Positions 5,189 to 51,924 of a stretch of DNA of 64,000 nucleotides are shown here, piece by piece. Under the pieces are notes generated by a model that was not told the DNA's origin, made no database searches, and saw nothing but the letters and a program-made list of their open reading frames with translations. The DNA comes from Eledone cirrhosa (lineage: Eukaryota). Location of the stretch: the NCBI GenBank assembly GCA_964016885.1, contig CAXHJY010000090.1:22991-86990 (forward strand), given 5' to 3'. Made by a program: the position numbers and the translations under genes. Position 1 is the first letter of the stretch. Each line of letters begins with the position of its first letter.

Positions 5189-8100
5189 TCATGTAAGTGC
5201 CGCGACAAAATGCACCCAGGTCCACACTGTAAAGTGGTTGTGTAGGTGCCGCGACAAAATGCACCCAGTCCACACTGTAAAGTGGTTGTGTAGGTGCCAC
5301 GACAAAATGCACCCAGTCCACACTGTAAAGTGGTTGTGTAGGTGTCATGGCAAAATGCACCTAGTCCACACTGTAAAGTGGTTGTGTAGGTGTCATGACA
5401 AAATGCACCCAGTCCACACTGTAAAGTGGTTGTGTAGGTGTCATGTCAAAATGCACCTAGTCCACACTGTAAAGTGGTTGTGTAGGTGTCATGACAAAAT
5501 GCACCTAGTCCACACTGTAAAGTGGTTGTGTAGGTGTCATGACAAAATGCACCCAGTCCACACTGTAAAGTGGTTGTGTAGGTGTCATGTCAAAATGCAC
5601 CTAGTCCACACTGTAAAGTGGTTGTGTAGGTGTCATGACAAAATGCACCCAGTCCACACTGTAAAGTGGTTGTGTAGGTGTCATGACAAAATGCACCCAG
5701 TCCACACTGTAAAGTGGTTGTGTAGGTGTCATGACAAAATGCACCCAGTCCACACTGTAAAGTGGTTGTGTAGGTGTCATGTCAAAATGCACCTAGTCCA
5801 CACTGTAAAGTGGTTGTGTAGGTGTCATGACAAAATGCACCCAGTCCACACTGTAAAGTGGTTGTGTAGGTGTCATGTCAAAATGCACCTAGTCCACACT
5901 GTAAAGTGGTTGTGTAGGTGTCACGACAAAATGCACCCAGTCCACACTGTAAAGTAGTTGTGTAGGTGTCATGACAAAATGCACCCAGTCCACACTGTAA
6001 AGTGGTTGTGTAGGTGTCATGACAAAATGCACCCAGTCCACACTGTAAAGTGGTTGTGTAGGTGCCACAACAAAATGCACCCAGTCCACACTGTAAAGTG
6101 GTTGTGTAGGTGTCATGTCAAAATGCACCTAGTCCACACTGTAAAGTGGTTGTGTAGGTGTCATGTCAAAATGCACCTAGTCCACACTGTAAAGTGGTTG
6201 TGTAGGTGTCATGTCAAAATGCACCTAGTCCACACTGTAAAGTGATTGTGTAGGTGTCATGGCAAAATGCACCCAGTCCACACTGTAAAGTGGTTGTGTA
6301 GGTGTCATGTCAAAATGCACATAGTCCACACTGTAAAGTGGTTGTGTAGGTGTCATGACAAAATGCACCCAGTCCACACTGTAAAGTGGTTGTGTAGGTG
6401 TCATGTCAAAATGCACCCAGTCCACACTGTAAAGTGGTTGTGTAGGTGTCATGACAAAATGCACCCAGTCCACACTGTAAAGTGGTTGTGTAGGTGTCAT
6501 GGCAAAATGCACCTAGTCCACACTGTAAAGTGGTTGTGTAGGTGTCATGACAAAATGCACCCAGTCCACACTGTAAAGTGGTTGTGTAGGTGTCATGACA
6601 AAATGCACCCAGTCCACACTGTAAAGTGGTTGTGTAGGTGTCATGACAAAATGCACCCAGTCCACACTGTAAAGTGGTTGTGTAGGTGTCATGTCAAAAT
6701 GCACCTAGTCCACACTGTAAAGTGGTTGTGTAGGTGTCATGACAAAATGCACCCAGTCCACACTGTAAAGTGGTTGTGTAGGTGTCATGTCAAAATGCAC
6801 CCAGTCCACACTGTAAAGTGGTTGTGTAGGTGTCATGACAAAATGCACCCAGTCCACACTGTAAAGTGGTTGTGTAGGTGTCATGGCAAAATGCACCTAG
6901 TCCACACTGTAAAGTGGTTGTGTAGGTGTCATGTCAAAATGCACCTAGTCCACACTGTAAAGTGGTTGTGTAGGTGTCATGTCAAAATGCACCCAGTCCA
7001 CACTGTAAAGTGGTTGTGTAGGTGTCATGACAAAATGCACCCAGTCCACACTGTAAAGTGGTTGTGTAGGTGTCATGGCAAAATGCACCTAGTCCACACT
7101 GTAAAGTGGTTGTGTAGGTGTCATGACAAAATGCACCCAGTCCACACTGTAAAGTGGTTGTGTAGGTGTCATGTCAAAATGCACCTAGTCCACACTGTAA
7201 AGTGGTTGTGTAGGTGTCATGCAAAATGCACCCAGTCCACACTGTAAAGTGGTTGTGTAGGTGTCATGTCAAAATGCACCCAGTCCACACTGTAAAGTGG
7301 TTGTGTAGGTGTCATGGCAAAATGCACCTAGTCCACACTGTAAAGTGGTTGTGTAGGTGTCATGACAAAATGCACCCAGTCCACACTGTAAAGTGGTTGT
7401 GTAGGTGTCATGACAAAATGCACCCAGTCCACACTGTAAAGTGGTTGTGTAGGTGTCATGACAAAATGCACCCAGTCCACACTGTAAAGTGGTTGTGTAG
7501 GTGTCATGTCAAAATGCACCTAGTCCACACTGTAAAGTGGTTGTGTAGGTGTCATGACAAAATGCACCCAGTCCACACTGTAAAGTGGTTGTGTAGGTGT
7601 CATGTCAAAATGCACCCAGTCCACACTGTAAAGTGGTTGTGTAGGTGTCATGTCAAAATGCACCTAGTCCACACTGTAAAGTGGTTGTGTAGGTGTCATG
7701 ACAAAATGCACCCAGTCCACACTGTAAAGTGGTTGTGTAGGTGTCATGACAAAATGCACCCAGTCCACACTGTAAAGGGGTTGTGTAGGTGTCATGTCAA
7801 AATGCACCTAGTCCACACTGTAAAGTGGTTGTGTAGGTGTCATGACAAAATGCACCCAGTCCACACTGTAAAGTGGTTGTGTAGGTGTCATGACAAAATG
7901 CACCCAGTCCACACTGAAAAGTGGTTGTGTAGGTGTCATGACAAAATGCACCCAGTCCACACTGTAAAGTGGTTGTGTAGGTGTCATGGCAAAATGCACC
8001 TAGTCCACACTGTAAAGTGGTTGTGTAGGTGTCATGACAAAATGCACCCAGTCCACACTGTAAAGTGGTTGTGTAGGTGTCATGTCAAAATGCACCCAGT

Positions 8101-8755
8101 CCACACTGTAAAGTGGTTGTGTAGGTGTCATGTCAAAATGAACCTAGTCCACACTGTAAAGTGGTTGTGTAGGTGTCATGTCAAAATGAACCTAGTCCAC
8201 ACTGTAAAGTGGTTGTGTAGGTGTCATGTCAAAATGAACCTAGTCCACACTGTAAAGTGGTCATGTTGGAGACATGGCAAAAAGTGACCAGTCCATTCTC
8301 TAAAGTGGTCGTGTAGGTGCCACGACAAAAAGTAGCCAGTCCAAACTGTAAAGTGATTGTGTAGGTATTGCAATACAAAGAACCTAGTCAACACAGTAAA
8401 GTGGTTGTTTGGTAACATAATAAAAGGAACCCAGTCCACACTGTAATATGGTCGTGTTTATGACATGACAAGGAGTGGTCAGTCAACTCTGTAAAGTGGT
8501 CATTTTGGTGCCATGACAAAAATGGCCAGTTCACTCTGTAATGTGGTCGTGTTAAACAACAGAAGACACCCAGTCCACACTGTAAACTGTTAGTGTTGAT
8601 GACACAACAAAAAGTTCCCAGTCCACACTATAAATGTGGTTGGGCTTTGGAAAGACATCCAGCCATAGAAACTGAGCCAGAAACAGTTCTGCATGAGCAA
8701 GATATGGTTACCTGACTCGACTTGTCTAATCCATGCTAGTGTGGAAAAATGGATT
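5189..8755 (+). repeat. 48-bp minisatellite (about 65 homogeneous units to about 8290, degenerate units to about 8640), then an RTE/SINE 3' tail
   Basis: Unit tccacactgtaaagtggttgtgtaggtgtcatgacaaaatgcacccag; followed by catccagccatagaaa...ccatgctagtgtggaaaaatgga. Confidence 0.95.
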
Positions 8756-10858
8756 TACCTCACATAATATCTCACATAACATTTACATTACTCTATATAT
8801 ACTATTGTATTTTCACAGTAAAGGCTTTACCTCACATAATATCTCACATAACATTCACATTACTCTATATATACTATTGTATTTTCACAGTAAAGGCTTT
8901 ACCTCACATAATATCTCACATAACATTTACATTACTCTATATATACTATTGTATTTTCACAGTAAAGGCTTTACCTCACATAATATCTCACATAACATTT
9001 ACATTACTCTATATATACTATTGTATTTTCACAGTAAAGGCTTTACCTCACATAATACCTCACATAACATTTACATTACTCTATATATACTATTATATTT
9101 TCACAGTAAAGGCTTTACCTCACATAAATATCTCACATAACATTTACATTACTCTATATATACTATTGTATTTTCACAGTAAAGGCTTTACCTCACATAT
9201 CTCACATAACATTTACATTACTCTATATATACTATTATATTTTCACAGTAAAGGCTTTACCTCACATAATATCTCACATAACATTTACATTACTCTATAT
9301 TTACTATTGTATTTTCATGGTAAAGGCTTTACCTCACATAATATCTCACATAACATTTACATTACTCTATATATACTATTGTATTTTCACAGTAAAGGCT
9401 TTACCTCACATAATATCTCACATAACATTTACATTACTCTATATATACTATTGTATTTTCATGGTAAAGGCTTTACCTCACATAATATCTCACATAACAT
9501 TTACATTACTCTATATTTACTATTGTATTTTCACAGTAAAGGCTTTACCTCACATAATATCTCACATAACATTTACATTACTCTATATTTACTATTGTAT
9601 TTTCACAGTAAAGGCTTTACCTCACATAATATCTCACATAACATTTACATTACTCTATATTTACTATTGTATTTTCACAGTAAAGGCTTTACCTCACATA
9701 ATATCTCACATAACATTTACATTACTCTATATATACTATTGTATTTTCATGGTAAAGGCTTTACCTCACATAATATCTCACATAACATTTACATTACTCT
9801 ATATTTACTATTATATTTTCATGATAAAGGCTTTACCTCACATAATATCTCACATAACATTTACATTACTCTATATATACTATTGTATTTTCATAGTAAA
9901 GGCTTTACCTCACATAATATCTCACATAACATTTACATTACTCTATATTTACTATTGTATTTTCACAGTAAAGGCTTTACCTCACATAATATCTCACATA
10001 ACATTTACATTACTCTATATTTACTATTGTATTTTCACAGTAAAGGCTTTACCTCACATAATATCTCACATAACATTTACATTACTCTATATATACTATT
10101 GTATTTTCATGGTAAAGGCTTTACCTCACATAATATCTCACATAACATTTACATTACTCTATATTTACTATTGTATTTTCACAGTAAAGGCTTTACCTCA
10201 CATAATATCTCACATAACATTTACATTACTCTATATTTACTATTGTATTTTCACAGTAAAGGCTTTACCTCACATAATATCTCACATAACATTTACATTA
10301 CTCTATATATACTATTGTATTTTCATGATAAAGGCTTTACCTCACATAATATCTCACATAACATTTACATTACTCTATATATACTATTGTATTTTCATGG
10401 TAAAGGCTTTACCTCACATAATATCTCACATAACATTTACATTACTCTATATTTACTATTGTATTTTCACAGTAAAGGCTTTACCTCACATAATATCTCA
10501 CATAACATTTACATTACTCTATATTTACTATTGTATTTTCACAGTAAAGGCTTTACCTCACATAATATCTCACATAACATTTACATTACTCTATATATGC
10601 TATTGTATTTTCATGATAAAGGCTTTACCTCACATAATATCTCGCATAACATTTACATTACTCTATATATACTATTATATTTTCATGGTAAAGGCTTTAC
10701 CTCACATAATATCTCACATACCATTTACATTACTCTATATATACTATTGTATTTTCATAGTAAAGGCTTTACCTCACATAATTATCTCACATAACATTTA
10801 CATTACTCTATATATACTATTATATTTCCACAGTAAAGGCTTCACTTCACATAATATC
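8755..10858 (+). repeat. 72-bp satellite (about 29 units) derived from the end of a piggyBac-type MITE
   Basis: Unit cacataatatctcacataacatttacattactctatatatactattgtattttcacagtaaaggctttacct; runs directly into the MITE body at about 10858. Confidence 0.95.
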
Positions 10859-11198
10859 GAATCTATGATATTTTGATATTATTTATTTTGAGAACAATAC
10901 CTTAACATCAGTATGAGTGACCAGTTACAGCCGATTTGAACAGAAAGAAGTGAGAGAATTCTGGCCGCATACAGCCGGTTGAAATGCTAATGGGTTGACC
11001 CTTTAGCATTTACATTACTCTATATTTCTTATTATATTTTCACAGTAAAGGATTTATCTCACATAATATCGAATCTATGAGATCTTGTTGAGAACAATAC
11101 CTTAACATCAGTATGAGTGGCCGGTTACAGCTGGTTTGAATAGAAAGGGGTGAGAGAATTCTGGCAGGATACAGCTGGTGTAAATGCTAAAGGGTTAA
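10793..11198 (+). mobile_element. Two tandem copies of a ~200-bp TTAA-flanked piggyBac-type MITE
   Basis: Ends CCCTTTAGCATTTA...TAAATGCTAAAGGG; TTGA at 10995-10998 and TTAA at 11195-11198. Confidence 0.8.
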
Positions 11199-11414
11199 AA
11201 AGAATGCCCTAGAAATGCTGTATGTCAATACAGCACCCCTACGATTCCCTCAGGGGTTACAAGACCATAAATAAATAAAAATGCTTTTGCTAACTGATTT
11301 AGTTGCCCTCCATGCACCGATGAGCTACTGACACAAACATACGAAGTGAGGGTTGTAATAGTCTTTGTTTTTTTTCACTAGTACTGTAGCTCTTAACACC
11401 AATATATCCAAAAT

Positions 11415-12171
11415 TAACCCTTTTGATACTAAACCACCTGAAACTGTCTCGGAATTTATGATACAAAGCTGTTCATTTTAAGATGTTTATCTCTCCTTAT
11501 AATTAAAACTTTCTTCACAATTTTATTTTCGAAAATTTTCCTTAAGTAATGTTTTAAATATCAGCTTATTAATGAAAAATTTAATTATCTTATCAAATTC
11601 CTCCAAATTTTTGATTATTTTCAGAATTAATTAACCTTCAAGCCCAGCAAGGTAAGAATTATCCACATATAATAATCAATTATTAACCCTTTTGACACCA
11701 AACAACCCAAAACTGTCCCTGATTGTATGATACAAACCTGATCATTTAAAAATGTTTATCCTTATATGAAAACCTTCCACCATAATTTCATTTCAGAAAA
11801 ATCTAATCCATTTATGATACAAAACTGTTCATTTTAAAATGTCTATCATTATATTAAAACTTTATTTTAACTCTTTTAATATCAACCGTCCTGAAACTGT
11901 CACTAGATTGGTGACACAATGATGCTTGTAATAAAATGTCTATCCTTATATTAAAATCTTCCTTCATAATTTTATTTCAGAAATATTTGCTAAGTAGTGT
12001 TCTAAATGTCAGTTTTACTAAAGAAAATCATAAATTAAATCTATTTATGATACAAAACTGGTCATTTAAAAATGTTTATCCTTAAATTAAAACTTTATTT
12101 CAACAGTTTTAATATCAAACCAACCAAGGTCAACTTTGCTTTTTATCCTTCCCTCTATATATCTTTCTCAC

Positions 12172-12209
<38 letters not shown>

Positions 12210-12924
12210 TCTCTCTCCCTCCCTCTCTCTTCGTAAGACTCCAGCAGGAGTTAAGGGTAAAATAATAAATTGGACATTTTAAAATGTCTCTCTTTATATT
12301 AAAACCTTCCATCATAATTTTATTTTAGAATTTTTTTACTTAAGTAAGGTTCTAAATATGAGCTTAACTAATGAAAAACTTAAATTAAATCTTTCTTCTT
12401 CTTCTTCTTCTTCTTTTTCTTCTTCTTTTTCTTCTTTTTCTTCTTTTTCTTCTTTTTCTTCTTCTTCTTCTTCTTCTTCTTCTTCTTTTTCCTTCTTTTT
12501 TTTCTTTTTTTTCTTTTTTTTCTTTTTCGTCTTCTTTTTCTTCTTCTTTGCCTTCGCCTTCGCCTTCTTCTTCTTCTTCTTCTTCTTCTTCTTCTTCTTG
12601 ACAGGGTCATGCAGACTCCTCAAACCACCCCTTCCAGCAGGTCCTGTCAGAAGCAATCATTCTCCAACTGTTTCGGTTGGATTCCTAAGCAAGACCATCC
12701 AAGCTCATGGATGTTATCCAACCATCTTGCTGGGCCTCCTCAGCTGTTGGTTTTGCCCATAAAATCTGTCCAGTGATTCTTTCCTGAGACATTCTAACCA
12801 TATCCCCATAGCAACAGAGCTGTGGACATGTTGTTAGACTTAAATTAAATTCATTTATTATAAAACAAATTGTTCCTTTTAAAATGTTTATCCTTATATT
12901 GAATCCTTCTATCATAAATATATT
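11415..12924 (+). repeat. Degenerate tandem repeat of a ~200-270-bp AT-rich unit
   Basis: Recurrent ttaacccttttga.ac, tgatacaaa.ctg.tcatttaaaaatgtttatccttatattaaaac at about 11415, 11683, 11867 and 12050. Confidence 0.6.
12391..12837 (-). mobile_element. 5'-truncated RTE-clade LINE 3' end with long (GAA)n tail and a 13-bp target site duplication
   Basis: Minus strand encodes degenerate YGDMVRMSQERITGQILWAKP (RTE C-terminal WYGHVxRM motif); TSD acttaaattaaat at 12378-12390 and 12838-12850. Confidence 0.8.
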
Positions 12925-13352
12925 TTAACCCTTTAGCATTTAAACTGGCCATATCTGGCAAGAATTCTCTCACCTCTTTCTGTTCAAACCGGTTGTAACC
13001 AGCTGCTCACACTTATAGTAAGGTACTCTCAAAATAAATAATATCAAAATCTCATAGATTCAATGCTATGTGAGGTAAAGCCTTTACTGTGAAAATACAA
13101 TAGTATATATAGAGTGGTTTCTTTATTTGCCACTAGGGCACAAAAGGTAGGGACAGATACAAGGGGGGAAGTTTACATATAATTAACGAGTACAAAAATA
13201 TAACAATGAAATAACAACAACAAACGAAGTCCTCAATAGGGAGGGGGCATTAACATGGGTCGCACACACCCCGGAAAAAATGTGTAACCCTTCTCCTCAG
13301 GAGCACAAAGAGTAGGTGCTTCCCTCGTCTCCGCTTTTTCCTCTTCTTTCAC

Positions 13353-16300
13353 CTACAGGCTGATATAGAGAGAAGACCCATTCACTCTGGCCATTCTCCC
13401 TACTTTCACCCACCTTTCATAAAACTTGCTGGGGTAGAGCACCTCTCTCTCCATTCTGATCCTTCTTTTAAAATGGTATTTGAAAAAGGGGACCAGTTGT
13501 TGGCCGGAGAGAAAGGTGTCTGACCTCAGCCCTTTCAGCCTCGTCCACCATACAACTTCTTTAGCCATGGCTACCACACAGAGAAAAACCGCCTCTCCTT
13601 CGTTTTTGAAAGGGGGAGGCGGTTTGATCGTGACAATGGACTCGGTGGTCAACCGGATTGGTCCCACCCTCGACAGTAGTCGTTCCACATAGCCCCACAG
13701 GTCAGCAATGCCTGGGCAGTGTACGAATGCGTGCGCAACGGTTTCGTCATCATGCACGCATCTCGGACAGATCTTATTCAAAGGATCTCTACCCAGGCTC
13801 CCATGCCTGTGGAGCTTGTCTCGAACGGGTAGAGCCCCTCGGTAGCACTGCCAAGCCAGGGACTTTTGGAAGTTGTCCATCGGTCCAGGGCCAAACGTCC
13901 TACCGAACAGACTGGCCAGTTCATCTTCCTCCATGCCTAGAGCTTCTCCGAGAGCATCGTCGCACCTGCTGCGTACCAACCCTCTATAGAATGTCGAGGT
14001 GGAGTCTCCACTGATTGCCGGGTCCGCTTTCCAGAGGGCCGTGAGCGCCTGGGCACATTCAATGTGCCAGTCGCCCACTTTTCTCGGTCTTTGCTTGACC
14101 CAGGATTGCAGCTCGGTGAGCGAGACGAGTCTGGGAAAGGCTCGCCTCACAAACGGGGCCCACACCGGTTGACCGGTGAGGAATACCTGGAGGTGCCGTA
14201 GCCTTAATGCGTGTTTACGCATCTGTAGCCACGGCATCCCCAGCCCTCCTTTCGAAGGGTGTTGACAGCAGATGGATCTCCTCACCAAAGGGGTCCGCTT
14301 GTTCCAAAGAAATTGGAACAGCGCGCACTCCATTTTGGCGAGTCTTTTCACTGGGCAAGGCACGACGGTCAAGCGGTAGTAGATGACGGATGCTATATAA
14401 GTATTCGCCACCTCCGCTCGACCTTTCAGGGATAGTTTGCACTGGGCCCACTTCTGGGTGAGTGCAAACACCCTGGCCGTTACCTCGTTCCAGTTTTTCT
14501 CCACCTGGAGGTCTGGTCCGAACCAGACCCCAAGCAGCTTCACCGGGCCCTCCGTCCAGCGTCCGACGACGTCGTTGGAGGGCATCGGTTTGCCTCTCCA
14601 TGTTCCGAGTTGCAAACCGACGGACTTGTCCCGGTTCAGCTTGGCTCCTGTAAACCTTTCATATTCCTCCAGTAAGGTGCCGATCTCACCGATTTGCGAG
14701 GTTTTCGACACCATTACTGTCACGTCATCGGCGTAGGCCGACGCCGCTTTCTGCAATCCCGGTTCCAAAGGGATGCCCTGCAACCGCTCCAACTTCCGCA
14801 GTAGTGGCTCAAGAGCCAGCACATACAGTAGGGAGGAGAGAGGGCATCCCTGTCGGATGGATCGCATGATTTGGAACGGCTCCGAGAGGTGGCCGTTCAC
14901 CTTGACCCTTGAGCAGACGTTGCTGCTGTGCATCGCAGCAATCCAACCCCTGAAAACGGGTCCGAAGCCTGCCGCCGCGAGCACCGCATCCAGGTAACGA
15001 TGGTCAACCCTATCGAAAGCTTTAGATTGATCCAAGTTGATCAGGGCCCCACCAAAGCCGGGTTCATTCCCTACCCTCTCTATGATGTATCGCATAAGGT
15101 GGAGATTGTCGTGAATGGACCTGGACGGGATTGCGCATGTCTGCGCTTCTCCCACCAGGTTTCCAACGACAAGCGCCAACCTCTTCGCTAACACCTTGGC
15201 CAAAATCTTTAACTCTGTATTTAGCAGAGTTATGGGCCTGAAGTTACTTATGTCATCCCCCTTGTTCTCATCCTTCCTCACCAGCGTAACTACGCCCTTG
15301 GTCACAGAACTGGGAATTCTCCCGTTCTGCTGCCAGTTGCAGTAGACCGCTTCGAGGATATCGGAGAACAAGTCCGGCATCGCTACATATAGCTCGTATG
15401 GTAGACCATCGAGACCCGGGGATTTGCGTTTGCCGCATTGGCTCAGCGCCGCCCCTATCTCAGCAGCTGAAATCGTCCTTTCGCAGGACTTCGCCTCCGC
15501 GTCCGAGAGGCGCGGCAGACCGTCGAGGTATGGATTGAAATCCATAGTCTCACCCGGCGCGCCGCCCCTCTCGAACAGTCGTGCAAAGTGCCGCTGAAAG
15601 GCCGCACACATCTGCCCAGGTTCAAGGATCACACGCCCATCCTGGTCCTTCAAAGACCGAATCGTGGACTTGTTCCCACTTTTTGCCTCTGTCACTCGGG
15701 CCCAGCTTACAGCTTTGGCTCCCTCATTACCCAGAGCACGTATTTTACTCCTGACAACGCAGCCTTCATGCTTCACCTCAAAGAACTGGTCTAAGGCCAT
15801 TCTTGATGCCAGCACGCCGGCTACATTGCCACTCCTAATCGCCTCTTCTACTCTATCTACTAATTCCCTTTCCGTCTTGTTCCTATCCCTTGCTAATTCC
15901 TGACTAAAACCTATCGATTCTATTCTAATTGCTCTCTTAAGAGAGCTCCACCACCTGTTGTTGACAATTGCCCCTGTCAAATTCTGCTTAACTAACGTGC
16001 TAATCCGTTTACTGTAAGCTTTGCTTCTCGGTAAGGACAAGTTCAGCTTCCAGTAACCGGGTCCCTGTCTATGGGTTCTATCAAGGTTGGCTATGCAGGT
16101 CACTAACTTGTGATCCGAATAGTCAACCATGAACATTTTTGGACAGCTAAATGTGTCCCTATCGTTCTCTCTAACTAGGACCCTATCTAGGTACGACCTA
16201 GATGTTCCACTGCGATTGGTCCACGTCCATAGTGGTACAGTCGGAAAATCTAGTCGATATCTATCGGCCAGGTCAAATCGGCCGATTAACCTTTTGAGGC

Positions 16301-16790
16301 TTTTACACCCCCCTCTATTGGCACATGCCCCTACATAGTCCCAACGTGCATCCAGGATACCATTCCAGTCCCCCACTAAAAGCAAGGAGCGGGACGTTCC
16401 CAGAAAAGTTTCCAGACGTTGGAAGTATTCCAGCCGCGCTGCCCAAAAAGGGGCGTACACAGCTATTAGTCTAAGGGCTCCACTTTCACTACTGCCGACG
16501 TCTAAAACCACCAGTCGACCCTCCGGGTCCAGGTGCACCTTCTGTATGGCGAGGCCCAGGTGTTTTCGCAGCAGAACGACAACTCCACCCCCACCCCCCG
16601 GTTGACAGAGAGATGCGAAGATCTCAAAGTCGTCGAAGAGGGGCGCCAGTTGGTGCTCGCTGCTGATCCTGGACTCGCAAATAGCCATTACATCCATTCT
16701 ATGTGACCTGAGATCGTTTAAAAGTTTGCCTTGTTTCCAAGACAGTCCCAGGCCACGTACATTCAGAAACCCAACTCTTATATCAGCCAT
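13353..16790 (-). CDS. LINE ORF2: APE endonuclease, reverse transcriptase and C-terminal zinc-binding domain (1145 aa)
   Basis: EN motifs NVRGL, GDWN, SYLDRV, SDH; GPGYWKLN (Tx1/L1-typical); RT motifs KSPGLDG, FRPITLLN, DQSKAFD, RQGCPLS, YADD; C-terminal CPRC-x-ETVAHAFVHC. Confidence 0.96.
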   Translation of the reverse strand: MADIRVGFLNVRGLGLSWKQGKLLNDLRSHRMDVMAICESRISSEHQLAPLFDDFEIFASLCQPGGGGGVVVLLRKHLGLAIQKVHLDPEGRLVVLDVGSSESGALRLIAVYAPFWAARLEYFQRLETFLGTSRSLLLVGDWNGILDARWDYVGACANRGGCKSLKRLIGRFDLADRYRLDFPTVPLWTWTNRSGTSRSYLDRVLVRENDRDTFSCPKMFMVDYSDHKLVTCIANLDRTHRQGPGYWKLNLSLPRSKAYSKRISTLVKQNLTGAIVNNRWWSSLKRAIRIESIGFSQELARDRNKTERELVDRVEEAIRSGNVAGVLASRMALDQFFEVKHEGCVVRSKIRALGNEGAKAVSWARVTEAKSGNKSTIRSLKDQDGRVILEPGQMCAAFQRHFARLFERGGAPGETMDFNPYLDGLPRLSDAEAKSCERTISAAEIGAALSQCGKRKSPGLDGLPYELYVAMPDLFSDILEAVYCNWQQNGRIPSSVTKGVVTLVRKDENKGDDISNFRPITLLNTELKILAKVLAKRLALVVGNLVGEAQTCAIPSRSIHDNLHLMRYIIERVGNEPGFGGALINLDQSKAFDRVDHRYLDAVLAAAGFGPVFRGWIAAMHSSNVCSRVKVNGHLSEPFQIMRSIRQGCPLSSLLYVLALEPLLRKLERLQGIPLEPGLQKAASAYADDVTVMVSKTSQIGEIGTLLEEYERFTGAKLNRDKSVGLQLGTWRGKPMPSNDVVGRWTEGPVKLLGVWFGPDLQVEKNWNEVTARVFALTQKWAQCKLSLKGRAEVANTYIASVIYYRLTVVPCPVKRLAKMECALFQFLWNKRTPLVRRSICCQHPSKGGLGMPWLQMRKHALRLRHLQVFLTGQPVWAPFVRRAFPRLVSLTELQSWVKQRPRKVGDWHIECAQALTALWKADPAISGDSTSTFYRGLVRSRCDDALGEALGMEEDELASLFGRTFGPGPMDNFQKSLAWQCYRGALPVRDKLHRHGSLGRDPLNKICPRCVHDDETVAHAFVHCPGIADLWGYVERLLSRVGPIRLTTESIVTIKPPPPFKNEGEAVFLCVVAMAKEVVWWTRLKGLRSDTFLSGQQLVPFFKYHFKRRIRMEREVLYPSKFYERWVKVGRMARVNGSSLYISL

Positions 16791-16811
16791 GTTGGTTAAA
16801 AGAGGAAGGAC

Positions 16812-18554
16812 CTACCTGTTCGGCTCCTGAGGAGCAGGTTGCACAATATCCATGGGCGTATTGGAGGGGTTGTTTGGTGGGGTGTTGTTCTGTGGTGGAG
16901 TGGGGGTGTTTGGTGAGGTGTGGGTGGGGAAACGTTTCAAGAGGACGCGGTTATAGGGTCGAGTACATGTTTTCCCCACGTCCTCAGGAAAGTTCTCTCT
17001 TAGTTTTGCATAGGTGTCCATTGGGAGTCTTATCATTTTTAAATGCGGTTTGTTGGCCGCGCTTGCAAAGAATTGCCCTTCAGTTTCCACCAAAGGGTCT
17101 TTGTGTATTGTTTTTACTAGTTCTTTGTTATTTGTGTTAATGTATGTATACTGTTTTATTTGTGTTGTGTTTGTTTGTTGTTCTTGTGTGTGCTTACGTT
17201 TTGTTGTATGTGTTATGTTTTGGGGTGGGGCGGATTTTGTTTGTTCTGTTTGTTTTGTTTTTGTTGGTGGTTGTGTGTTTGTTTCGTTTATGTTCGAGTG
17301 GTGCTTTCTTTTTTTCCTTTTTACAGGTTGGAAGGGTTCCCCCTCTTCGTCACTAGGTGCCGTTTCCGCTGGGTCCTCGTCCGTGCTGTTGGGTAGTGGT
17401 GTATTTTGGGGTTTTGTTGTATTTGTGTGTGTTTTGGGAGTTGTTTTGGGTGGGGCCGTGTCTTGTGTTATTTTTCCCTGTTGTTTTTGTTGTTGTTGTG
17501 GTGGTGGTGGTGGAGGTGGTGGTGGTGGTGGTGGTGGCGGTGGTGGTGTGTGGGGTGTAGGCAAAAGAGCCTTTTTTTTTGTCAATTGAGGACAAGCAGC
17601 CCTTAGATGACCCCTGCTTGAACAGTAGTAACATATGGGCCTCCTACCCTCGGCTGAAATATATATAAATGTTTCTCCATCGAGGGACACCCTCTGTGGT
17701 ATTCTAGCGATTCGTTCTGGTCTCATTTGGACCAGAACCTCCACGCTCAAACCGCCGAAAACGTCTGTGGTGACTTCTCCTACTGAGAGGATTCCGTCCT
17801 CGTCTTCTAAAAATCCTGTTAGTACCCAGGAAATGCATGCATTTGGCCGGATTCCGGAGACCCTTATCTTCTGCGTTCTTTTCCCTAAATATGTGGGGAA
17901 AAATGTATATATCTTGGAAACAATTGGTGCCACAGAGTATTTCCTGGCCGTCAATTGATCCTTCATTAGGACCGTTATATTCCCATAGAGTGGCCCTTTT
18001 TGTATGAACGATATATCACTCCACACATTTTTTAGGACCAGCTCAATCTCTTTTTGGGATAATTGAGTTGGTTTCCTTGTTATGTTGGAAATTGTTCTGA
18101 AAGATATCGTTCTTAGCGTCGTGTCTCTTTTGATTTCTTGTGGGGAGGTGATTGTGAAGTCTCCTCCTTCTTTGAAAGTTACATACTGTTTCGCTTCCTT
18201 CATCTTTTCTCTCAGAGTTGTAATGTCCAGTTGCTTGCAGGTTTGTGTTTTCCGGACCGCCTGTGCAAAGGAGGTACCAGTAGTGGGTTCACTTTGTTTG
18301 GTGTTATCGTTATTTTTTCCTTGGTTGGTGTTGTGACTATTGCTGTTATTGTCGTTGATGTTTTTGTCTGCGTTTATGTGACTTTCTGGGTTTTCACCCA
18401 TTTCTACAAATTTTTCTTTTAATTCCGTGTTCCATGTTTCTTTTGCAGAAGTGAGGAGGGAAGACTTAGAGCCTTGTGCTTCTAGCTTCTCTGTATCACC
18501 TTTCTTAGGGGGCGTGGCTTTCACGTTAGGATGAGATGTGAAAATTCCGTCCAT
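16812..18554 (-). CDS. LINE ORF1, gag-like nucleic-acid-binding protein (580 aa from the first ATG)
   Basis: Zinc knuckle CYYCSSRGHLRAAC (CX2CX4HX4C), basic KRKKRK patch, Pro/Gln/Thr-rich C-terminus; directly upstream of ORF2. The track start at 18647 is a non-ATG codon. Confidence 0.88.
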   Translation of the reverse strand: MDGIFTSHPNVKATPPKKGDTEKLEAQGSKSSLLTSAKETWNTELKEKFVEMGENPESHINADKNINDNNSNSHNTNQGKNNDNTKQSEPTTGTSFAQAVRKTQTCKQLDITTLREKMKEAKQYVTFKEGGDFTITSPQEIKRDTTLRTISFRTISNITRKPTQLSQKEIELVLKNVWSDISFIQKGPLYGNITVLMKDQLTARKYSVAPIVSKIYTFFPTYLGKRTQKIRVSGIRPNACISWVLTGFLEDEDGILSVGEVTTDVFGGLSVEVLVQMRPERIARIPQRVSLDGETFIYISAEGRRPICYYCSSRGHLRAACPQLTKKKALLPTPHTPPPPPPPPPPPPPPPPQQQQKQQGKITQDTAPPKTTPKTHTNTTKPQNTPLPNSTDEDPAETAPSDEEGEPFQPVKRKKRKHHSNINETNTQPPTKTKQTEQTKSAPPQNITHTTKRKHTQEQQTNTTQIKQYTYINTNNKELVKTIHKDPLVETEGQFFASAANKPHLKMIRLPMDTYAKLRENFPEDVGKTCTRPYNRVLLKRFPTHTSPNTPTPPQNNTPPNNPSNTPMDIVQPAPQEPNR

Positions 18555-18765
18555 TTCTATTAGTTTGCCGTAATAAATTTTTAACTGGATAATTCGCCCC
18601 AAAAAGGGGCGAAAATAAATAAACTCAAAGTTTGACGACCAAGGCAAGGGGTTAACGTATATTACAGTATAAAAAAATTAATAAAAACTCACTTTTTGAG
18701 TAAGTAAATCCGACTCGGTAGCCGAGCTTGTTCACACACGTCAACACACGTCTCTCGTATACGAG

Positions 18766-19415
18766 ATGTTATGTGAGATATTATGTGAGGTAAAGCCTTT
18801 ACCATGAACATATAATAGTATATATAGAGTAATGTGAATGTTATGTGAGATAATTATGTGAGGTAAAGCCTTTACCATGAACATATAATAGTATATATAG
18901 AGTAATGTGAATGTTATGTGAGATATTATGTGAGGTAAAGTCTTTACCATGAAAATACAATAGTATATATAGAGTAATGTAACTGTTATGTGAGATATTA
19001 TGTGAGGTAAAGCCTTTACTGTGAAAATACAATAGTATATATAGAGTAATGTAAATGTTATATGAGATATTATGTGAGGTAAAGTCTTTACCATGAAAAT
19101 ACAATAGTATATATAGAGTAATGTAACTGTTATGTGAGATATTATGTGAGGTAAAGTCTTTACCATGAAAATACAATAGTATATATAGAGTAATGTAAAT
19201 GTTATGTGAGATATTATGTGAGGTAAAGCCTTTACTGTGAAAATATAATAGTATATATAGAGTAATGTGAATGTTATGCGAGATATTATGTGAGGTAAAG
19301 CCTTTACTGTGAAAATACAATAGTATATATAGAGTAATGTAAATGTTATGTGAGATATTATGTGAGGTAACGCCTGTACTGTGAAAATATAATAGTATAT
19401 ATAGAGTAATGTAAA
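18766..19415 (-). repeat. 72-bp satellite (about 9 units), inverted relative to 8755-10858
   Basis: Reverse complement of the same unit. Confidence 0.93.
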
Positions 19416-19429
19416 TGTTAAAGGATTAA

Positions 19430-19710
19430 ATCCTTTAGCATTTAAACTACCCGTGTTTGGCCAGAATTCGCTCACCTCTTTCTATTCAAACTGGCCATAA
19501 CCAGCTGCTCATAACCCTTTAGCATTTAAACCAGCCATATAGAGCCAGAATTCTCTCACCTCTTTCTGTTCAAACCGGCTGTAACTAGCCACTCATATCG
19601 ATGTTAAGGTATTGTTCTCAAAATAAATAATATCAAAACCTCATAGATTCAATATTATGTGAGATAAAGCCTTTACCACAAAAATACAATAGTAAATGAT
19701 AAAGGGTTAA
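19430..19710 (-). mobile_element. One partial and one near-complete additional piggyBac-type MITE copy
   Basis: CCTTTAGCATTTAAA at about 19432 and 19515; AAAGGG-TTAA at 19701-19710. Confidence 0.75.
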
Positions 19711-19919
19711 TTAAATCGTTCAATGTGTCCTAATTAAATAACTGAATAATCACCATTGAAACTGATGGAGATCCTTTTGTTTGTTTTTTTTTGTTTTTGT
19801 ATTTTTTAAAGTCCCCCCCCCCCCCTCTGCACTTATTCCCACCACTGGTTCTCTTTAGGTCAAATTATTGAAATCTTGAGAGTTAATCCTTAGAGATAAA
19901 GGGAACAGGTTTAAACTTG

Positions 19920-20437: not shown

Positions 20438-23400
20438 GTCACATACGGCCCACAAAGTCACATACAGCCCACGACCCACATATGGCACACAAAGTCACAT
20501 ACAGCCCACATACAGCCCACGACCCACATATGGCACACAAAGTCACATACAGCCCACGACCCACATATGGCACACAAAGTCACATACAGCCCACATACAG
20601 CCCACGACCCACATATGGCACACAAAGTCACATACAGCCCACGACCCACATATGGCACACAAAGTCACATACAGCCCACATACAGCCCACGACCCACATA
20701 TGGCACACAAAGTCACATACAGCCCACATACAGCCCACGACCCACATATGGCACACAACGTCACATACAGCCCACGACCCACATATGGCACACAAAGTCA
20801 CATACAGCCCACGACCCACATACGGCCCACAAAGTCACATACAGCCCACATACCGCCCACGACCCACATATGGCACACAAAGTCACATACAGCCCACGAC
20901 CCACATATGGCACACAAAGTCACATACAGCCCACGACCCACATATGGCACACAAAGTCACATACAGCCCACGACCCACATATGGCACACAAAGTCACATA
21001 CAGCCCACGACCCACATATGGCCCACAAAGTCACATACAGCCCACATACAGCCCACGACCCACATATGGCACACAAAGTCACATACAGCCCACGACCCAC
21101 ATATGGCACACAAAGTCACATACAGCCCACGACCCACATATGGCACACAAAGTCACATACAGCCCACGACACACATATGGCCCACAAAGTCACATACAGC
21201 CCACATACAGCCCACGACCCACATATGGCACACAAAGTCACATACAGCCCACATACAGCCCACGACCCACATATGGCACACAAAGTCACATACAGCCCAC
21301 GACCCACATATGGCACACAAAGTCACATACAGCCCACGACCCACATATGGCACACAAAGTCACATACAGCCCACGACCCACATATGGCACACAAAGTCAC
21401 ATACAGCCCACATACAGCCCACGACCCACATATGGCCCACAAGGTCACATACAGCCCACGACCCACATATGGCACACAAAGTCACATACAGCCCACATAC
21501 AGCCCACGACCCACATATGGCACACAAAGTCACATACAGCCCACGACCCACATATGGCACACAACGTCACATACAGCCCACATACAGCCCACGACCCACA
21601 TATGGCACACAAAGTCACATACAGCCCACGACCCACATATGGCACACAAAGTCACATACAGCCCACGACCCACATATGGCACACAAAGTCACATACAGCC
21701 CATATACAGCCCACGACCCACATATGGCACACAAAGTCACATACAGCCCACGACCCACATATGGCACACAACGTCACATACAGCCCACGACCCACATATG
21801 GCACACAACGTCACATACAGCCCACGACCCACATATTGCACACAAAGTCACATACAGCCCACGACCCACATATGGCACACAAAGTCACATACAGCCCACA
21901 TACAGCCCACGACCCACATATGGCACACAAAGTCACATACAGCCCACATACAGCCCACGACCCACATATGGCACACAAAGTCACATACAGCCCACGACCC
22001 ACATATGGCACACAAAGTCACATACAGCCCACGACCCACATATGGCACACAAAGTCACATACAGCCCACATACAGCCCACGACCCACATATGGCCCACAA
22101 GGTCACATACAGCCCACGACCCACATATGGCACACAAAGTCACATACAGCCCACATACAGCCCACGACCCACATATGGCACACACAGTCACATACAGCCC
22201 ACATACAGCCCACGACCCACATATGGCACACAAAGTCACATACAGCCCACGACCCACATATGGCACACAAAGTCACATACAGCCCACATACAGCCCACGA
22301 CCCACATATGGCACACAAAGTCACATACAGCCCATATACAGCCCACGACCCACATATGGCACACAAAGTCACATACAGCCCACGACCCACATATGGCACA
22401 CAACGTCACATACAGCCCACGACCCACATATGGCACACAACGTCACATACAGCCCACGACCCACATATGGCACACAAAGTCACATACAGCCCACGACCCA
22501 CATATGGCACACAACGTCACATACAGCCCACGACCCACATATGGCACACAAAGTCACATACAGCCCACGACCCACATATGGCACACAAAGTCACATACAG
22601 CCCACGACCCATATATGGCACACAAAGTCACATACAGCCCACATCCAGCCCACGACCCACATATGGCACACAAAGTCACATACAGCCCACGACCCACATA
22701 TGGCACACAAAGTCACATACAGCCCACGACCCACATATGGCACACAACGTCACATACAGCCCACGACCCACATATGGCACACAACGTCACATACAGCCCA
22801 CGACCCACATATGGCACACAAAGTCACATACAGCCCACGACCCACATATGGCACACAACGTCACATACAGCCCACGACCCACATATGGCACACAAAGTCA
22901 CATACAGCCCACATCCAGCCCACGACCCACATATGGCACACAAAGTCACATACAGCCCACGACCCACATATGGCACACAAAGTCACATACAGCCCACATA
23001 CAGCCCACGACCCACATATGGCACACAAAGTCACATACAGCCCACGACCCACATATGGCACACAGTCACATACAGCCCACGACCCACATATGGCACACAA
23101 AGTCACATACAGCCCACATACAGCCCACGACCCACATATGGCACACAAAGTCACATACAGCCCACGACCCACATATGGCACACAACGTCACATACAGCCC
23201 ACGACCCACATATGGCACACAAAGTCACATACAGCCCACATACAGCCCACGACCCACATATGGCACACAACGTCACATACAGCCCACGACCCACATATGG
23301 CACACAAAGTCACATACAGCCCACGACCCACATATGGCACACAAAGTCACATACAGCCCACGACCCACATATGGCACACAAAGTCACATACAGCCCACGA

Positions 23401-23495
23401 CCCACATATGGCACACAAAGTCACATACAGCCCACATACGGCCCACGACCCACAAAGTCACATACGGTCCACGAGCCAAAGTTTCTCCATGACTG
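20438..23495 (+). repeat. 37-bp minisatellite with 48-bp variant units, ending in a hAT-like terminus
   Basis: Unit catacagcccacgacccacatatggcacacaaagtca with an optional extra catacagccca; ends ggtccacgagccaaagtttctccatgactg. Confidence 0.92.
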
Positions 23496-38434: not shown

Positions 38435-38470
<36 letters not shown>

Positions 38471-38471
38471 G

Positions 38472-38540
<69 letters not shown>
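34790..38540. repeat. Extensive (TA)n/(TATG)n microsatellite fields with short unique islands, ending in (GA)n
   Basis: Direct reading. Confidence 0.95.
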
Positions 38541-38542
<2 letters not shown>

Positions 38543-39746
38543 GCTGTGCTGTGTTCCACATTGCAAAGCAGTGTGTCAATGCAAATCAGGATGTTGTTGG
38601 AGATAAATGTGTCCGGGATGATGACGGTGTACTTAGTGTCACGAATGATCAGAAAAAGGAGGCCTGGAAATGTCATTATGAGAGACTGATGAATGTGGAG
38701 AACGAATGGGAGAGAGAGAAATTACCCTTGGTAGATCTGACAGAGGGACCACCTATTGAGATTGACGAATATAGGGTCCAAGAGGCGATTAGGGAAATGA
38801 AAAATGGTAAGGCTGCCGGACCATCGGGAATAGTTGCTGAGATGGGGGACGTAGGCACTAAACTGGTTGCACGCATCATCAATCAAGCTATATATGGTGG
38901 TGTCATACCCAAAGACTGGTGCAGCAGTATTCTCATAAATTGCTACAAAGGTAAAGGAGATGCTCTGGAGAGGAGCAATTATAGGGGTATAAAACTGATG
39001 TATCAGGTTATGAAAGTGGCAGAAAGGATATTAGCACAACTAATTAGAGAAAGGGTCAAACTAGATGAGATGCAGTTTGGTTTTGTGCCTGGGAAAAGTA
39101 CAGCAGAGACCTTCTTCTTGGTGAGACAATTGCAAGAGAGGTTCTTAGAGAAGAATAAGCCACTATACTTAGCCTTTTTTGACCTAGAGAAGGCCTTTGA
39201 TAGGGTACCCCGATCTGTCATCTGGTGGTCCCTAAGGAAACTAGGTGTTGAGGAATGGTTTGTGAGGACAGTGCAAGCTTTGTACAGAGGTGCTGTCAGT
39301 AAAGTCAGGGTAGGAATGGAGTTTAGTGAGGAATTCCAGATACAAGTAGGAGTACATCAAAGTTCAGTCCTCAGCCCGCTCTTGTTCATTTTAGTCCTCC
39401 AAGCCATAACAGAGGAGTTTAAGACTGGCTGTCCATGGGAACTTCTCTACGCTGACGATCTGGTTCTTATAGCAGGATCAGTAGAGGAGCTAGAGAATAA
39501 ATTCTGGCTATGGAAACAGCAGTTGGAAGCAAGAGGACTGAGAGTGAACCTAGCTAAGACAAAAGTGTCGATGAGTAGAAAAGAGGACAAACTCTGATTC
39601 CGTCAGGGAAATGGCCATGTTCGATATGCAGAAAAGGAACTGGCATAAATTCTATAAAATGCACACAATGCAGATCCTGGGTACACAAGAGATGTAGTGG
39701 GATAGCAGGCAAACTAACAGGTAGGGAGAAATATGTATGCAGGAGA
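38540..39746 (+). pseudogene. RTE-clade reverse transcriptase fragment, truncated at both ends
   Basis: KAAGPSG, NYRGIKL, QFGFVPG, DLEKAFD, VHQSSVLSP, YADD; stop at 39597, followed by a Cys-rich segment (WPCSICRKG...CTQCRSWVHKRC). Confidence 0.92.
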
Positions 39747-44248: not shown

Positions 44249-44614
44249 CTTTCAAATACCACTTTGGAAGAAGAGTCAGGATGGAGAGAGAGGTGTTGTA
44301 CCCCAGCAAATTTTATAAAAGGTGGGTGAATGTGGCAAAGATGGCCCGAGTGGTTGGGCCTTCTCTCTATATAAACCTGTAGATTGAGGAAAAAGAGGAA
44401 GAGAGAAAGGGAGTACTCACTCTTGGTGCTCCTGGAGATGAGGGTTGTACATTTTTTCGGGGTGTGTACAACCACTGTGTAACACCTCCCCCCTATTGGG
44501 GATTTCAATTGTTATTTGTTATTTTATTAATAGTTTTATTTTCATAGACCTGTATGTAAACTCCCCATTTGTATTTGTCCCCTTTTTTTGTGCCCTTGTG
44601 GCTAATAAAGGAAT
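44249..44614 (+). mobile_element. 5'-truncated copy of the Tx1-type LINE
   Basis: FKYHFGRRVRMEREVLYPSKFYKRWV matches the ORF2 C-terminus; homologous 3' UTR to aataaag. Confidence 0.9.
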
Positions 44615-45203: not shown

Positions 45204-45915
45204 GGTAGGGACCCCGCCAAAAAGATCTGTCCCAGATGCGTGTGTGACGAGGAAACCGTTGCACACGCATTGGTACACTGCTCGGGTGTAGCCGATCTGT
45301 GGGGCTATGTCGAACAACTGCTGTCAAGGGTGGGACCGATCCGGTTGACCACTGAGTCTATTGTAATGATCAAGCCGCCTCCCCCCTTCAAAGATGAAGC
45401 AGAAGCGGTGTTTCTGTGCGTAATAGCCATGGCGAAAGAGGTTGTATGGTGGACGCGTCTGAAAGGACTGAGGTCAGGCACCTTTCTCTCTGGCCAACAA
45501 CTGGTCCGTTTCTTCCGTTATCATTTCGGAAGAAGGATCAGGATGGAGAGAGAGGTGCTGCACCCCAGCCGTTTCTATGAAAGATGGGTGAAAGTGGCGA
45601 GAATGGCCCGTGTGAATGGGCCTTCACTCTACATCAGACTATAGGTGAGGAAGATGAAAGACCAAGGGAGCACCCCTTCTCTGTGCTCCTGAGGAGAAGG
45701 GTTGCACACTTTTTTTCGGGGGTGTGTGCGACCCCCCAAGGCGCCTCCTCCCTATTGAGGATTTTGTTATAAAATTTATTTTGTTATATTTTATTTTATT
45801 TTTATACTTTTATATCTTGTTATTGCCTCCTCCATATTGAGGACGCCTTTGCATGTAAACTCCCCCCTTTGTACTTGCCCCACTTTTGATGCCCTGGTGT
45901 CAAATAAAAAGAAAG
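45204..45915 (+). mobile_element. 5'-truncated copy of the Tx1-type LINE in (CTAT)n
   Basis: CDEETVAHALVHC...ARVNGPSLYI closely matches ORF2; 3' UTR ends aataaaaagaaag. Confidence 0.93.
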
Positions 45916-46257: not shown

Positions 46258-49200
46258 GTTGACCTACTATACTTAAGGGCTTCACTGATAGGGTCATGTG
46301 TGTTATAATTGCCCAGTTGACCTATACTAAAGGGCTTCACTGATAGGGTCATGTGTGTTATAATTGCCCAGTTGACCTATACTAAAGGGCTTCAGTGATA
46401 GGGTCATGTGTGTTATAATTGCCCAGTTGACCTATACTAAAGGGCTTCACTGATAGGGTAATGTGTGTTATAATTGCCCAGTTGACCTATACTAAAGGGC
46501 TTCACTGATAGGGTCATGTGTGTTATAATTGCCCAGTTGACCTATACTAAAGGGCTTCAGTGATAGGGTCATGTGTGTTATAATTGCCCAGTTGACCTAT
46601 ACTAAAGGGCTTCACTGATAGGGTTATGTGTGTTATAATTGCCCAGTTGACCTATACTAAAGGGCTTCACTGATAGGGTCATGTGTGTTATAATTGCCCA
46701 GTTGACCTATACTAACGGGCTTCACTGATAGGGTCATGTGTGTTATAATTGCCCAGTTGACCTATACTAAAGGGCTTCACTGATAGGGTCATGTGTGTTA
46801 TAATTGCCCAGTTGACCTATGCTAAAGGGCTTCATTGATAGGGTCATGTGTGTTATAATTGCCCAGTTGACCTATACTAAAGGGCTTCACTGATAGGGTC
46901 ATGTGTGTTATAATTTCCAGTTGACCTATACTAAAGGGCTTCACTGATAGGGTTATATGTGTTATAATTGCCCAGTTGACCTATACTAAAGGGCTTCACT
47001 GATAGGGTCATGTGTGTTATAATTGCCCTGTTGACCTACTATACTAAAGGGCTTCACTGATAGGGTCATGTGTGTTATAATTGCCCAGTTGACCTACTAT
47101 ACTAAAGGGCTTCACTGATAGGGTCATGTGTGTTATAATTGCCCAGTTGACCTACTATACTAAAGGGCTTCACTGATAGGGTCATGTGTGTTATAATTGC
47201 CCAGTTGACCTACTATACTAAAGGGCTTCACTGATAGGGTTATGTGTTATAATTGCCCAGTTGACCTATACTAAAGGGCTTCACTGATAGGGTTATGTGT
47301 GTTATAATTGCCCAGTTGACCTATACTAAAGGGCTTCACTGATAGGGTTATGTGTTATAATTACCCAGTTGACATATACTAAAGGGCTTCACTGATAGGG
47401 TTATGTGTGTTATAATTGCCCAGTTGACCTATACTAAAGGGCTTCACTGATAGGGTTATGTGTGTTATAATTGCCCAGTTGACCTACTATACTAAAGGGC
47501 TTCACTGATAGGGTCATGTGTGTTATAATTGCCCAGTTGACCTATAGTAAAGGGCTTCACTGATAGGGTTATGTGTGTTATAATTGCCCAGTTGACCTAC
47601 TATACTAAAGGGCTTCACTGATAGGGTCATGTGTGTTATAATTGCCCAGTTGACCTATAGTAAAGGGCTTCACTGATAGGGTTATGTGTGTTATAATTGC
47701 CCAGTTGACCTACTATACTAAAGGGCTTCACTGATAGGGTTATGTGCGTTATAATTGCCCAGTTGACCTATAGTAAAGGGCTTCACTGATAGGGTTATGT
47801 GTGTTATAATTTCCCAATTGACCTATACTAAAGGACTTCACTGATAGGGTCATGTGTGTTATAATTGCCCAGTTGACCTATACTAAAGGGCTTCACTGAT
47901 AGGGTTATGTGTGTTATAATTTTCCAATTGACCTATACTAAAGGACTTCACTGATAGGGTCATGTGTGTTATAATTGCCCAGTTGACCTATACTAAAGGG
48001 CTTCACTGATAGGGTTATGAGTGTTATAATTGCCCAGTGGACCTATACTAAAGGGCTTCACTGATAGGGTCATGTGTGTTATAATTTCCCAGTTGACCTA
48101 TACTAAAGGGCTTCACTGATAGGGTTATGTGTTATAATTGCCCAGTTGACCTATACTAAAGGGCTTCACTGATAGGGTTATGTGTGTTATAATTGCCCAG
48201 TTGACCTATACTAAAGGGCTTCACTGATAGGGTTATGTGTTATAATTACCCAGTTGACCTATACTAAAGGGCTTCACTGATAGGGTTATGTGTGTTATAA
48301 TTGCCCAGTTGACCTATACTAAAGGGCTTCACTGATAGGGTTATGTTTGTTATAATTGCCCAGTTGACCTACTATACTAAAGGGCTTCACTGATAGGGTC
48401 ATGTGTGTTATAATTGCCCAGTTGACCTATAGTAAAGGGCTTCACTGATAGGGTTATGTGTGTTATAATTGCCCAGTTGACCTACTATACTAAAGGGCTT
48501 CACTGATAGGGTCATGTGTGTTATAATTGCCCAGTTGACCTATAGTAAAGGGCTTCACTGATAGGGTTATGTGTGTTATAATTGCCCAGTTGACCTACTA
48601 TACTAAAGGGCTTCACTGATAGGGTTATGTGCGTTATAATTGCCCAGTTGACCTATAGTAAAGGGCTTCACTGATAGGGTTATGTGTGTTATAATTTCCC
48701 AATTGACCTATACTAAAGGACTTCACTGATAGGGTCATGTGTGTTATAATTGCCCAGTTGACCTATACTAAAGGGCTTCACTGATAGGGTTATGTGTGTT
48801 ATAATTTCCCAATTGACCTATACTAAAGGACTTCACTGATAGGGTCATGTGTGTTATAATTGCCCAGTTGACCTATACTAAAGGGCTTCACTGATAGGGT
48901 TATGTGTGTTATAATTTCCCAATTGACCTATACTAAAGGACTACACTGATAGGGTCATGTGTGTTATAATTGCCCAGTTGACCTATACTAAAGGGCTTTA
49001 CTGATAGGGTCATGTGTGTTATAATTTCCCAGTTGACCTATACTAAAGGGCTTCACTGATAGGGTTATGTGTGTTATAATTGCCCAGTTGACCTATACTA
49101 AAGGGCTTCACTGATAGGGTTATGTGTGTTATAATTTCCCAGTTGACCTACTATACTAAAGGGCTTCACTGATAGGGTTATGTGTGTTATAATTGCCCAG

Positions 49201-51392: not shown

Positions 51393-51399
51393 ACCACCA

Positions 51400-51905: not shown

Positions 51906-51924
51906 ACATATAGTTACTTGTAAC

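Follow-up and report, generated by a model that had tools for sequence, protein, structure and literature searches.

Several Tx1 families of long interspersed nuclear elements (LINEs) insert into particular repeats: Tx1 into the piggyBac transposon Tx1D, Tx1-Mar into Mariner-N4, Tx1-9_AMi into Harbinger, and Kibi and Koshi into microsatellites (PMC4494074). In Xenopus laevis, a two-open-reading-frame (two-ORF) element with an apurinic endonuclease (APE), Tx1L, sits in the non-autonomous TTAA/piggyBac-type transposon Tx1D (PMC4494074, PMC1950540); an earlier note on the DNA studied here had invoked its site specificity as precedent, and the precedent is confirmed in print (PMC4494074). We describe a comparable arrangement in the octopod Eledone cirrhosa, in 64,000 nucleotides of contig CAXHJY010000090.1 (positions 22,991 to 86,990; the window): an L1/Tx1-type LINE inserted in a piggyBac-type miniature inverted-repeat transposable element (MITE). 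A fixed insertion site would be a further likeness to Tx1L/Tx1D, if the octopod LINE has one as is argued below. Tx1L differs in its endonuclease hairpin loop, which has 11 residues against 9 here (PMC1950540), and the specificity of the octopod LINE is putative. Crocodilian Tx1-Mar (Mariner-N4_AMi) and Tx1-9_AMi (Harbinger) also prefer an old, abundant non-autonomous DNA transposon, but one of another superfamily, and their partner short interspersed nuclear element (SINE) makes target-site duplications (TSDs) (PMC4494074). The placement of a Tx1 element in a DNA transposon is already known from frogs and crocodiles, and the LINE described here is a further member. We hold with moderate confidence that it belongs to a young multi-copy family which prefers the motif ACTCTATATATA, and whose copies land independently, mostly at one site of the 72-bp MITE unit.

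The LINE, its parts and the adjoining target motif are located as follows (window coordinates).

13116..18765, minus strand: full L1/Tx1-type non-long-terminal-repeat retrotransposon with two ORFs, 5,650 bp
13116..13352, minus strand: 3' untranslated region (UTR), 237 bp, with AATAAA at 13122-13127 and without poly(A)
13353..16790, minus strand: ORF2, 1145 aa, with APE endonuclease, reverse transcriptase (RT) and zf-RVT
16812..18554, minus strand: ORF1, 580 aa, with a CCHC knuckle at residues 307-323 and a Pro/Thr-rich tail
18555..18765, minus strand: 5' leader, 211 bp
13104..13115, plus strand: 12-bp target motif adjoining the LINE 3' end, reading ACTCTATATATA on the LINE strand; also present in junction contigs of the public runs X2 and X5

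Measured from the right end of a unit-length MITE, the insertion site is 18 bp inward, and it recurs in every 72-bp array unit. The earlier note had seen a LINE nested in a tandem array, interrupting a 72-bp unit with a loss of about 7 bp and with neither TSD nor poly(A). Reading of the junctions bore this out, except that the interrupted unit, the first, belongs to the MITE body; of the extent then given (13116..18766) the start stands, and base 18766 can be assigned to the LINE or to the flank alike. All nine units to the right of the LINE share an intact linker, GAGT-AATGT(A/G)A-(A/C)TG, which shows that 7 bp are missing at the insertion (strictly 7 + 72n, as whole units may have been lost). 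No exact TSD was found at the LINE junctions, and shifting the junctions by up to 10 bp yielded only one 5-mer. A 65-bp in-phase TSD mimicked by the array was considered and rejected, 14 of the 65 positions being mismatched. There is no poly(A) at the 3' end, where AATAAA-GAAACC is followed directly by the target. Insertion of Tx1L reportedly makes a target duplication, in contrast to the 7-bp loss seen here. A 14-bp palindrome (18753-18766) straddles the 5' junction; it could be the true 5' end of the LINE or a fold-back formed on insertion.

Whether other copies share this target was judged from public sequencing runs. Part of the LINE is contained in 14 runs from 10 studies, five of which contain at least half of its words; contigs of four runs (X1, X2, X5 and X7) were compared over 12620-16800, with 32 records listed of 171,144. 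Two of the listed contigs cross the 3' junction, each with two differences and no gap: X2 record 9 (13104-13431, depth 36.9), which covers 12 letters of the target, and X5 record 17 (13094-13431, depth 12.2), which covers 22. The two runs bear different organism labels and come from different studies, and the 3' flank of the LINE is the same in both. This shared flank lends moderate support to the target preference of Tx1L/Tx1D type that the earlier note had proposed. No loose-end row at 13116 was present among 24 listed of 4,518, an absence not used as evidence.

The lengths of the shared flanks were compared with a toy de Bruijn assembly model (k of 31, with tips trimmed and 100 runs at each setting), in which copy numbers and depths were assumed. 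With random flanks, 12-29 identical flank letters were obtained in 0 of 100 runs at each of the five settings. An X5-like result (18-29 identical letters) never occurred with no copies in the MITE (0/100), and occurred in 0-3 runs at a MITE share of 20%, in 4-11 at 50% and in 11-22 at 80-100%. On its assumptions, the model favours a share of at least 50% of LINE copies in the MITE.

These results bear on the simplest alternative, namely that a weakly specific young L1/Tx1 copy landed by chance in an abundant AT-rich repeat. Such an accident would find ample room, MITE and arrays making up 6.5% of the rest of the window, and in Octopus vulgaris 421 recent L1-Tx1 insertions have been counted (PMC13282606); the LINE-family ends outside the MITE and the L1-like length of the hairpin loop (both below) would also fit. 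An identical flank in two runs that differ in label and study, which random flanks did not reproduce at any setting, makes chance landing unlikely.

Several observations weigh against a preference for the MITE site. Both junction overlaps are shorter than the 31 letters required for a formal bridge, and no junction record of X1 or X7 was found among the records listed. When the model drew its flanks from the 40 empty target sites of the window, with variation everywhere, an X2-like result was seen in only 0-5 of 100 runs (X5-like in 7-32). A fixed 12-mer gave 60-100 of 100, in a model that was set after X2 had been seen and is circular for X2. A mixture of MITE and (TA)n sites accounts better than MITE sites only for the X2 contig stopping where the TA run ends: a stop at exactly 12 letters was obtained in 66-98 of 100 runs at 20-80% MITE and in 56-77 at 0%, but in 10-31 at 100%. 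Should the library of X2 be RNA, the stop 18 bases past AATAAA could mark the end of a transcript. A single LINE hit in so common a target means little by itself. Two of the three LINE-family 3' ends in the window, both of older subfamilies, lie outside the MITE. Finally, 9 residues separate the anchors of the endonuclease hairpin loop, as in the promiscuous human L1, whereas close relatives of the LINE and Tx1L have 11 (Tx1L from PMC1950540).

Some of these points would be explained by targeting of (TA)n/(TCTA)n, or by ACTC(TA)n being the LINE's own 3' tail, used in priming by microhomology, with the MITE as one of many sites. The X2 stop at the end of the TA run was reproduced in 56-98 of 100 model runs with 0-20% of copies in the MITE, and the window contains 852 TA tracts, both strands counted. 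The 12-mer ends 18 bases past AATAAA and so could be carried in the LINE RNA; such a distance is ordinary spacing for a poly(A) site. The older relatives of the LINE in the window are of interest in this respect.

44250..44613, plus strand: older 5'-truncated sister LINE fragment, 76% identical (blastn); 5' junction in a TCTA-type repeat, outside the MITE
45205..45910, plus strand: older 5'-truncated sister LINE fragment, 82% identical (blastn); (TCTA)n tract on both sides

The 5' junctions of both fragments are in TCTA-type repeats, one fragment lying wholly within (TCTA)n. In this they resemble the microsatellite-specific Tx1 families Kibi and Koshi of fish, as does the TA run in the target motif; Kibi and Koshi differ in the repeat unit, and the young LINE here lies within a MITE (PMC4494074). 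The 22 MITE-specific letters of the X5 contig argue against microsatellite targeting, with 0/100 model runs at 0% MITE and 0-3/100 at 20%, and so does the ACTC ahead of the TA run, which is in phase with the MITE unit. We regard this explanation as rather doubtful. Families with more than 20% of their copies by one repeat type have been classed as target-specific (PMC4494074); one of the three LINE ends in the window is in the MITE.

The two sister fragments are 600 bp apart. Compared with the last 143 codons of ORF2, the fragment at 45205-45910 shows 37 synonymous and 21 non-synonymous codon differences, and this synonymous excess indicates that it derives from a separate, once-active subfamily.

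The age of the LINE family was assessed from the same contigs. Six near-identical X2 contigs differ from the window LINE at 6 of 1,974 letters (about 0.3%); for two X5 contigs the count is 3 of 633. Since X1, X2 and X5 share an alternative letter at 13285, 13333, 16432, 16704 and 16768, the window LINE has private changes and the contigs are not simply the window copy. Among the four ORF2 differences that were translated (16164, 16432, 16704 and 16768), three alter a residue of the endonuclease region, none of them catalytic. X5 gives no depth to the window letter at 12993; this was not used as evidence, contigs being prone to drop rare variants. The near-identical contigs of X2 keep an even depth (37-65) between the LINE 3' end and the ORF2 start, with no gradient of 5' truncation. 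In X1 the summed depth reaches about 2,100-2,900 where overlap is least, compared with 8-19 for its eight listed diverged contigs; although summed contig depth is no copy number, these depths point to many copies, tens to hundreds, most of them long. The family is likely, on these sequence comparisons, to be young and multi-copy, and the description of the LINE as young and intact in the earlier note agrees with the two open ORFs and with the small distance from the X2 contigs. No RNA run is listed among those containing the LINE, which is uninformative on expression.

In O. vulgaris, 13 L1-Tx1 families with 421 recently active insertions occupy 2.29 Mb at about 5.4 kb each, a size like that of the LINE here (PMC13282606). 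Because recent insertions of that average length are so numerous, an intact young L1-Tx1 copy is ordinary in that species. The words "target" and "nested" are absent from the main text on these families according to a term search (PMC13282606), and the LINE family may already be contained in the O. vulgaris L1-Tx1 library or in the supplements of that paper. In the literature beyond Repbase, Dfam and subscription journals, no title or abstract opening matched Tx1 targets or the MITE in cephalopods.

The host of the LINE is a MITE family of about 200 bp with 14-bp terminal inverted repeats (TIRs), CCC first and GGG last, with TTAA outside. Its parts at the insertion are the following.

12925..12928, plus strand: TTAA target site, left
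12929..12942, plus strand: left MITE TIR, 14 bp, starting with CCC; agrees with the consensus right end of the empty MITEs from run contigs
12929..13115, plus strand: MITE body as far as the insertion site; similarity to four other window bodies 83-85%
18766..19414, plus strand: nine tandem MITE units of 72 bp (one of 73 bp), the interrupted linker lacking its first 7 bp
19412..19425, plus strand: right TIR, with two mismatches in 14 positions, one of them the terminal G; ends GGA, with TTAA at 19426-19429
19430..19710, plus strand: MITE fragment consisting of a head only, and after it a short MITE (19515-19706) whose final GGG is followed by TTAA; possible alternative right end

The five MITE bodies in the window are 83-87% alike (about 15% diverged), and a complete copy lies between two TTAA sites at 52135-51929. 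Empty MITEs in run contigs (44 contigs in X2, 271 in X7) continue for 18 bases past the insertion point and then reach TTAA, and their consensus ends in GGG-TTAA. Termini that begin with C, together with TTAA, are those of piggyBac rather than the RR...YY termini of Kolobok (PMC9587614, PMC5381638), and the MITE, having such ends, therefore points to the piggyBac type and not to Kolobok. TTAA is present on both sides, and the TIR that starts with C is within the 12-19 bp range of piggyBac-type elements. No cognate transposase was found by eye among window ORFs of at least 150 aa. A search for a tRNA, 5S or snRNA head, as a SINE would have, gave no Rfam match in 12600-19800 at E up to 1.

Elsewhere in the window (8754-11198, minus strand), 29 tandem copies of the 72-bp unit succeed a head-to-tail MITE dimer; the stretch contains no LINE and lacks the far TIR. 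Joints of the dimer and array types also occur in run contigs, and this region is a MITE in the course of becoming satellite DNA. Just upstream of the host MITE (11410-12370) there are several degenerate copies of another AT-rich repeat family, which begins with TTAA-CCCTTTTGA (11414 and 11683).

The alternative that one insertion was amplified at the DNA level, as a composite moved by piggyBac or by duplication, or that a single orthologous insertion is shared across related species, must be viewed in the light of this structure. The earlier note had proposed that the TIRs at 12929 and 19425 could mobilise such a composite. Both positions are correct, but two of the 14 letters of the right TIR depart from the left one, the lost terminal G among them, and deletion of the terminal G abolishes piggyBac excision (PMC5381638; see also PMC4625184). 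The MITE bodies are only 83-87% alike, in contrast to the 0.3% divergence of the LINE. In the toy model, flanks of identical composites or of a single locus ran to 30 letters, 12-29 letters being obtained in 0-1 of 100 runs, whereas the contigs stop at 12 and 22. These three points speak against the proposed mobilisation. The flat X2 depth with no truncation gradient is what amplification of a whole composite would give, and a unit spanning 12929-19706 would have CCC...GGG ends with TTAA on both sides; the case for mobilisation through the intact GGG/TTAA end at 19706 is weak. Taken as a whole, we judge DNA-level amplification or common descent of one insertion very unlikely. Hitchhiking has also been raised for the crocodilian Tx1 systems, where it was rejected for the partner SINEU-3 on account of its truncated copies (PMC4494074).

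The coding capacity of the LINE is complete. Both ORFs are open and separated by 21 bp. All catalytic motifs checked in ORF2 are present: in the endonuclease N10, E39, GDWN (140-143), D202 and SDH (225-227), in the RT QGCPLS (647) and YADD (686), and at the C-terminus CPRC...H...C (1008-1025). RVT_1, Exo_endo_phos and zf-RVT of ORF2 exceed the curated Pfam cut-offs, whereas the CCHC knuckle of ORF1 is under its cut-off (E 0.007). These coordinates and matches substantiate what the earlier note had read as two open frames with complete motifs. Atlas look-alikes of ORF1 (0.90-0.93) carry zf-CCHC, RRM and ZCCHC3 domains, and the stretch preceding the CCHC knuckle is likely an RRM-type region; residues 105-330 had no relative among 1,188 candidates. 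The 3' UTR showed no folding beyond shuffled controls (z 0.09).

The LINE has the layout of the L1 group, with an N-terminal APE domain, RT and a C-terminal cysteine motif in ORF2, and ORF1 ahead of it. Among named proteins, the nearest to ORF2 is one of Argonauta hians, with 69% identity over residues 500-870; taken with the repeat landscape, this fits an octopod host. Its best solved relative is human L1 ORF2p (E 1e-52, residues 5-857, in the Protein Data Bank, which holds few LINE clades), and R2 proteins matched at E 3e-23 or weaker. In a quick tree of 54 rows, which contained no named Tx1 or vertebrate L1 reference, the LINE joins Argonauta (99) within a clade of animal elements that includes those of fish and sea cucumbers, and is separated from plant L1. 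An ORF1 with RRM and CCHC domains is described as consistent with Tx1 (PMC5203782), and Tx1 is placed inside the L1 clade (PMC3747384, PMC9004415). Protein searches with the LINE gave no match bearing the name Tx1. In its build the LINE works like Tx1, and its membership of the Tx1 clade appears likely. A 24-letter pattern of the LINE 3' end had no match in metagenome contigs and none in viral contigs (three in the window), and a metagenome profile scan returned 71 loci whose best segments, 23-50% identical, are too remote to inform on the target. Proteins P0004, P0012 and P0148 are relatives (about 40% over the whole length and 50-55% within the RT region) in clusters of 385-732 members, many of them full-length and on long contigs; these clusters are large young sister families of another genome.

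Insertion at the preferred MITE site can be envisaged as follows. For elements of this class it is established that ORF2 nicks the target and copies its RNA from the nick, and that target-site truncation arises instead of a TSD when the second nick falls to the other side of the first (PMC4494074). ORF2 of the octopod LINE would nick at or beside ACTCTATATATA and prime reverse transcription from the nick, possibly assisted by RNA-DNA pairing, and the second nick would be positioned so that 7 bp of target are lost. We infer a sequence preference, independent insertions and a MITE share of about half or more. The lineage may have a habit for TCTAT/TA-type repeats, of which the MITE unit would be an abundant mimic, and the MITE would serve as a passive, plentiful landing pad and not as a vehicle.

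Tentatively, this can be extended to a history that is possible but has less than an even claim to be true: an octopod Tx1 lineage recently switched from TCTA/TA microsatellites to a look-alike motif that a piggyBac-type MITE offers 18 bp inward of its right end and again in each array unit, carries 12 target bases at its RNA 3' end for priming, and retains activity in at least two species.

The window holds further repeats: an RT-bearing open frame, RTE-like by eye (38470-39597, plus strand), a C-terminal fragment of another LINE (51390-51932, minus strand), and minisatellite arrays at 5204-8642, 20440-23454, 46267-50195 and 61927-62584 (units of 48, 37/85, 55 and 102 bp, respectively).

Young, intact, sequence-preferring elements are study material for the question of how APE-type LINEs choose their targets; such elements are also raw material for site-directed insertion tools. 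The LINE family described here supplies an intact ORF2, a short candidate motif and, for comparison, older sister subfamilies at other sites. In cephalopod genomics, it would show young LINEs landing in an old MITE and its arrays, and not in genes. If the proposed switch of target is true, the Tx1L/Tx1D arrangement would have arisen independently in an invertebrate, and this family would display both the old target and the new one.

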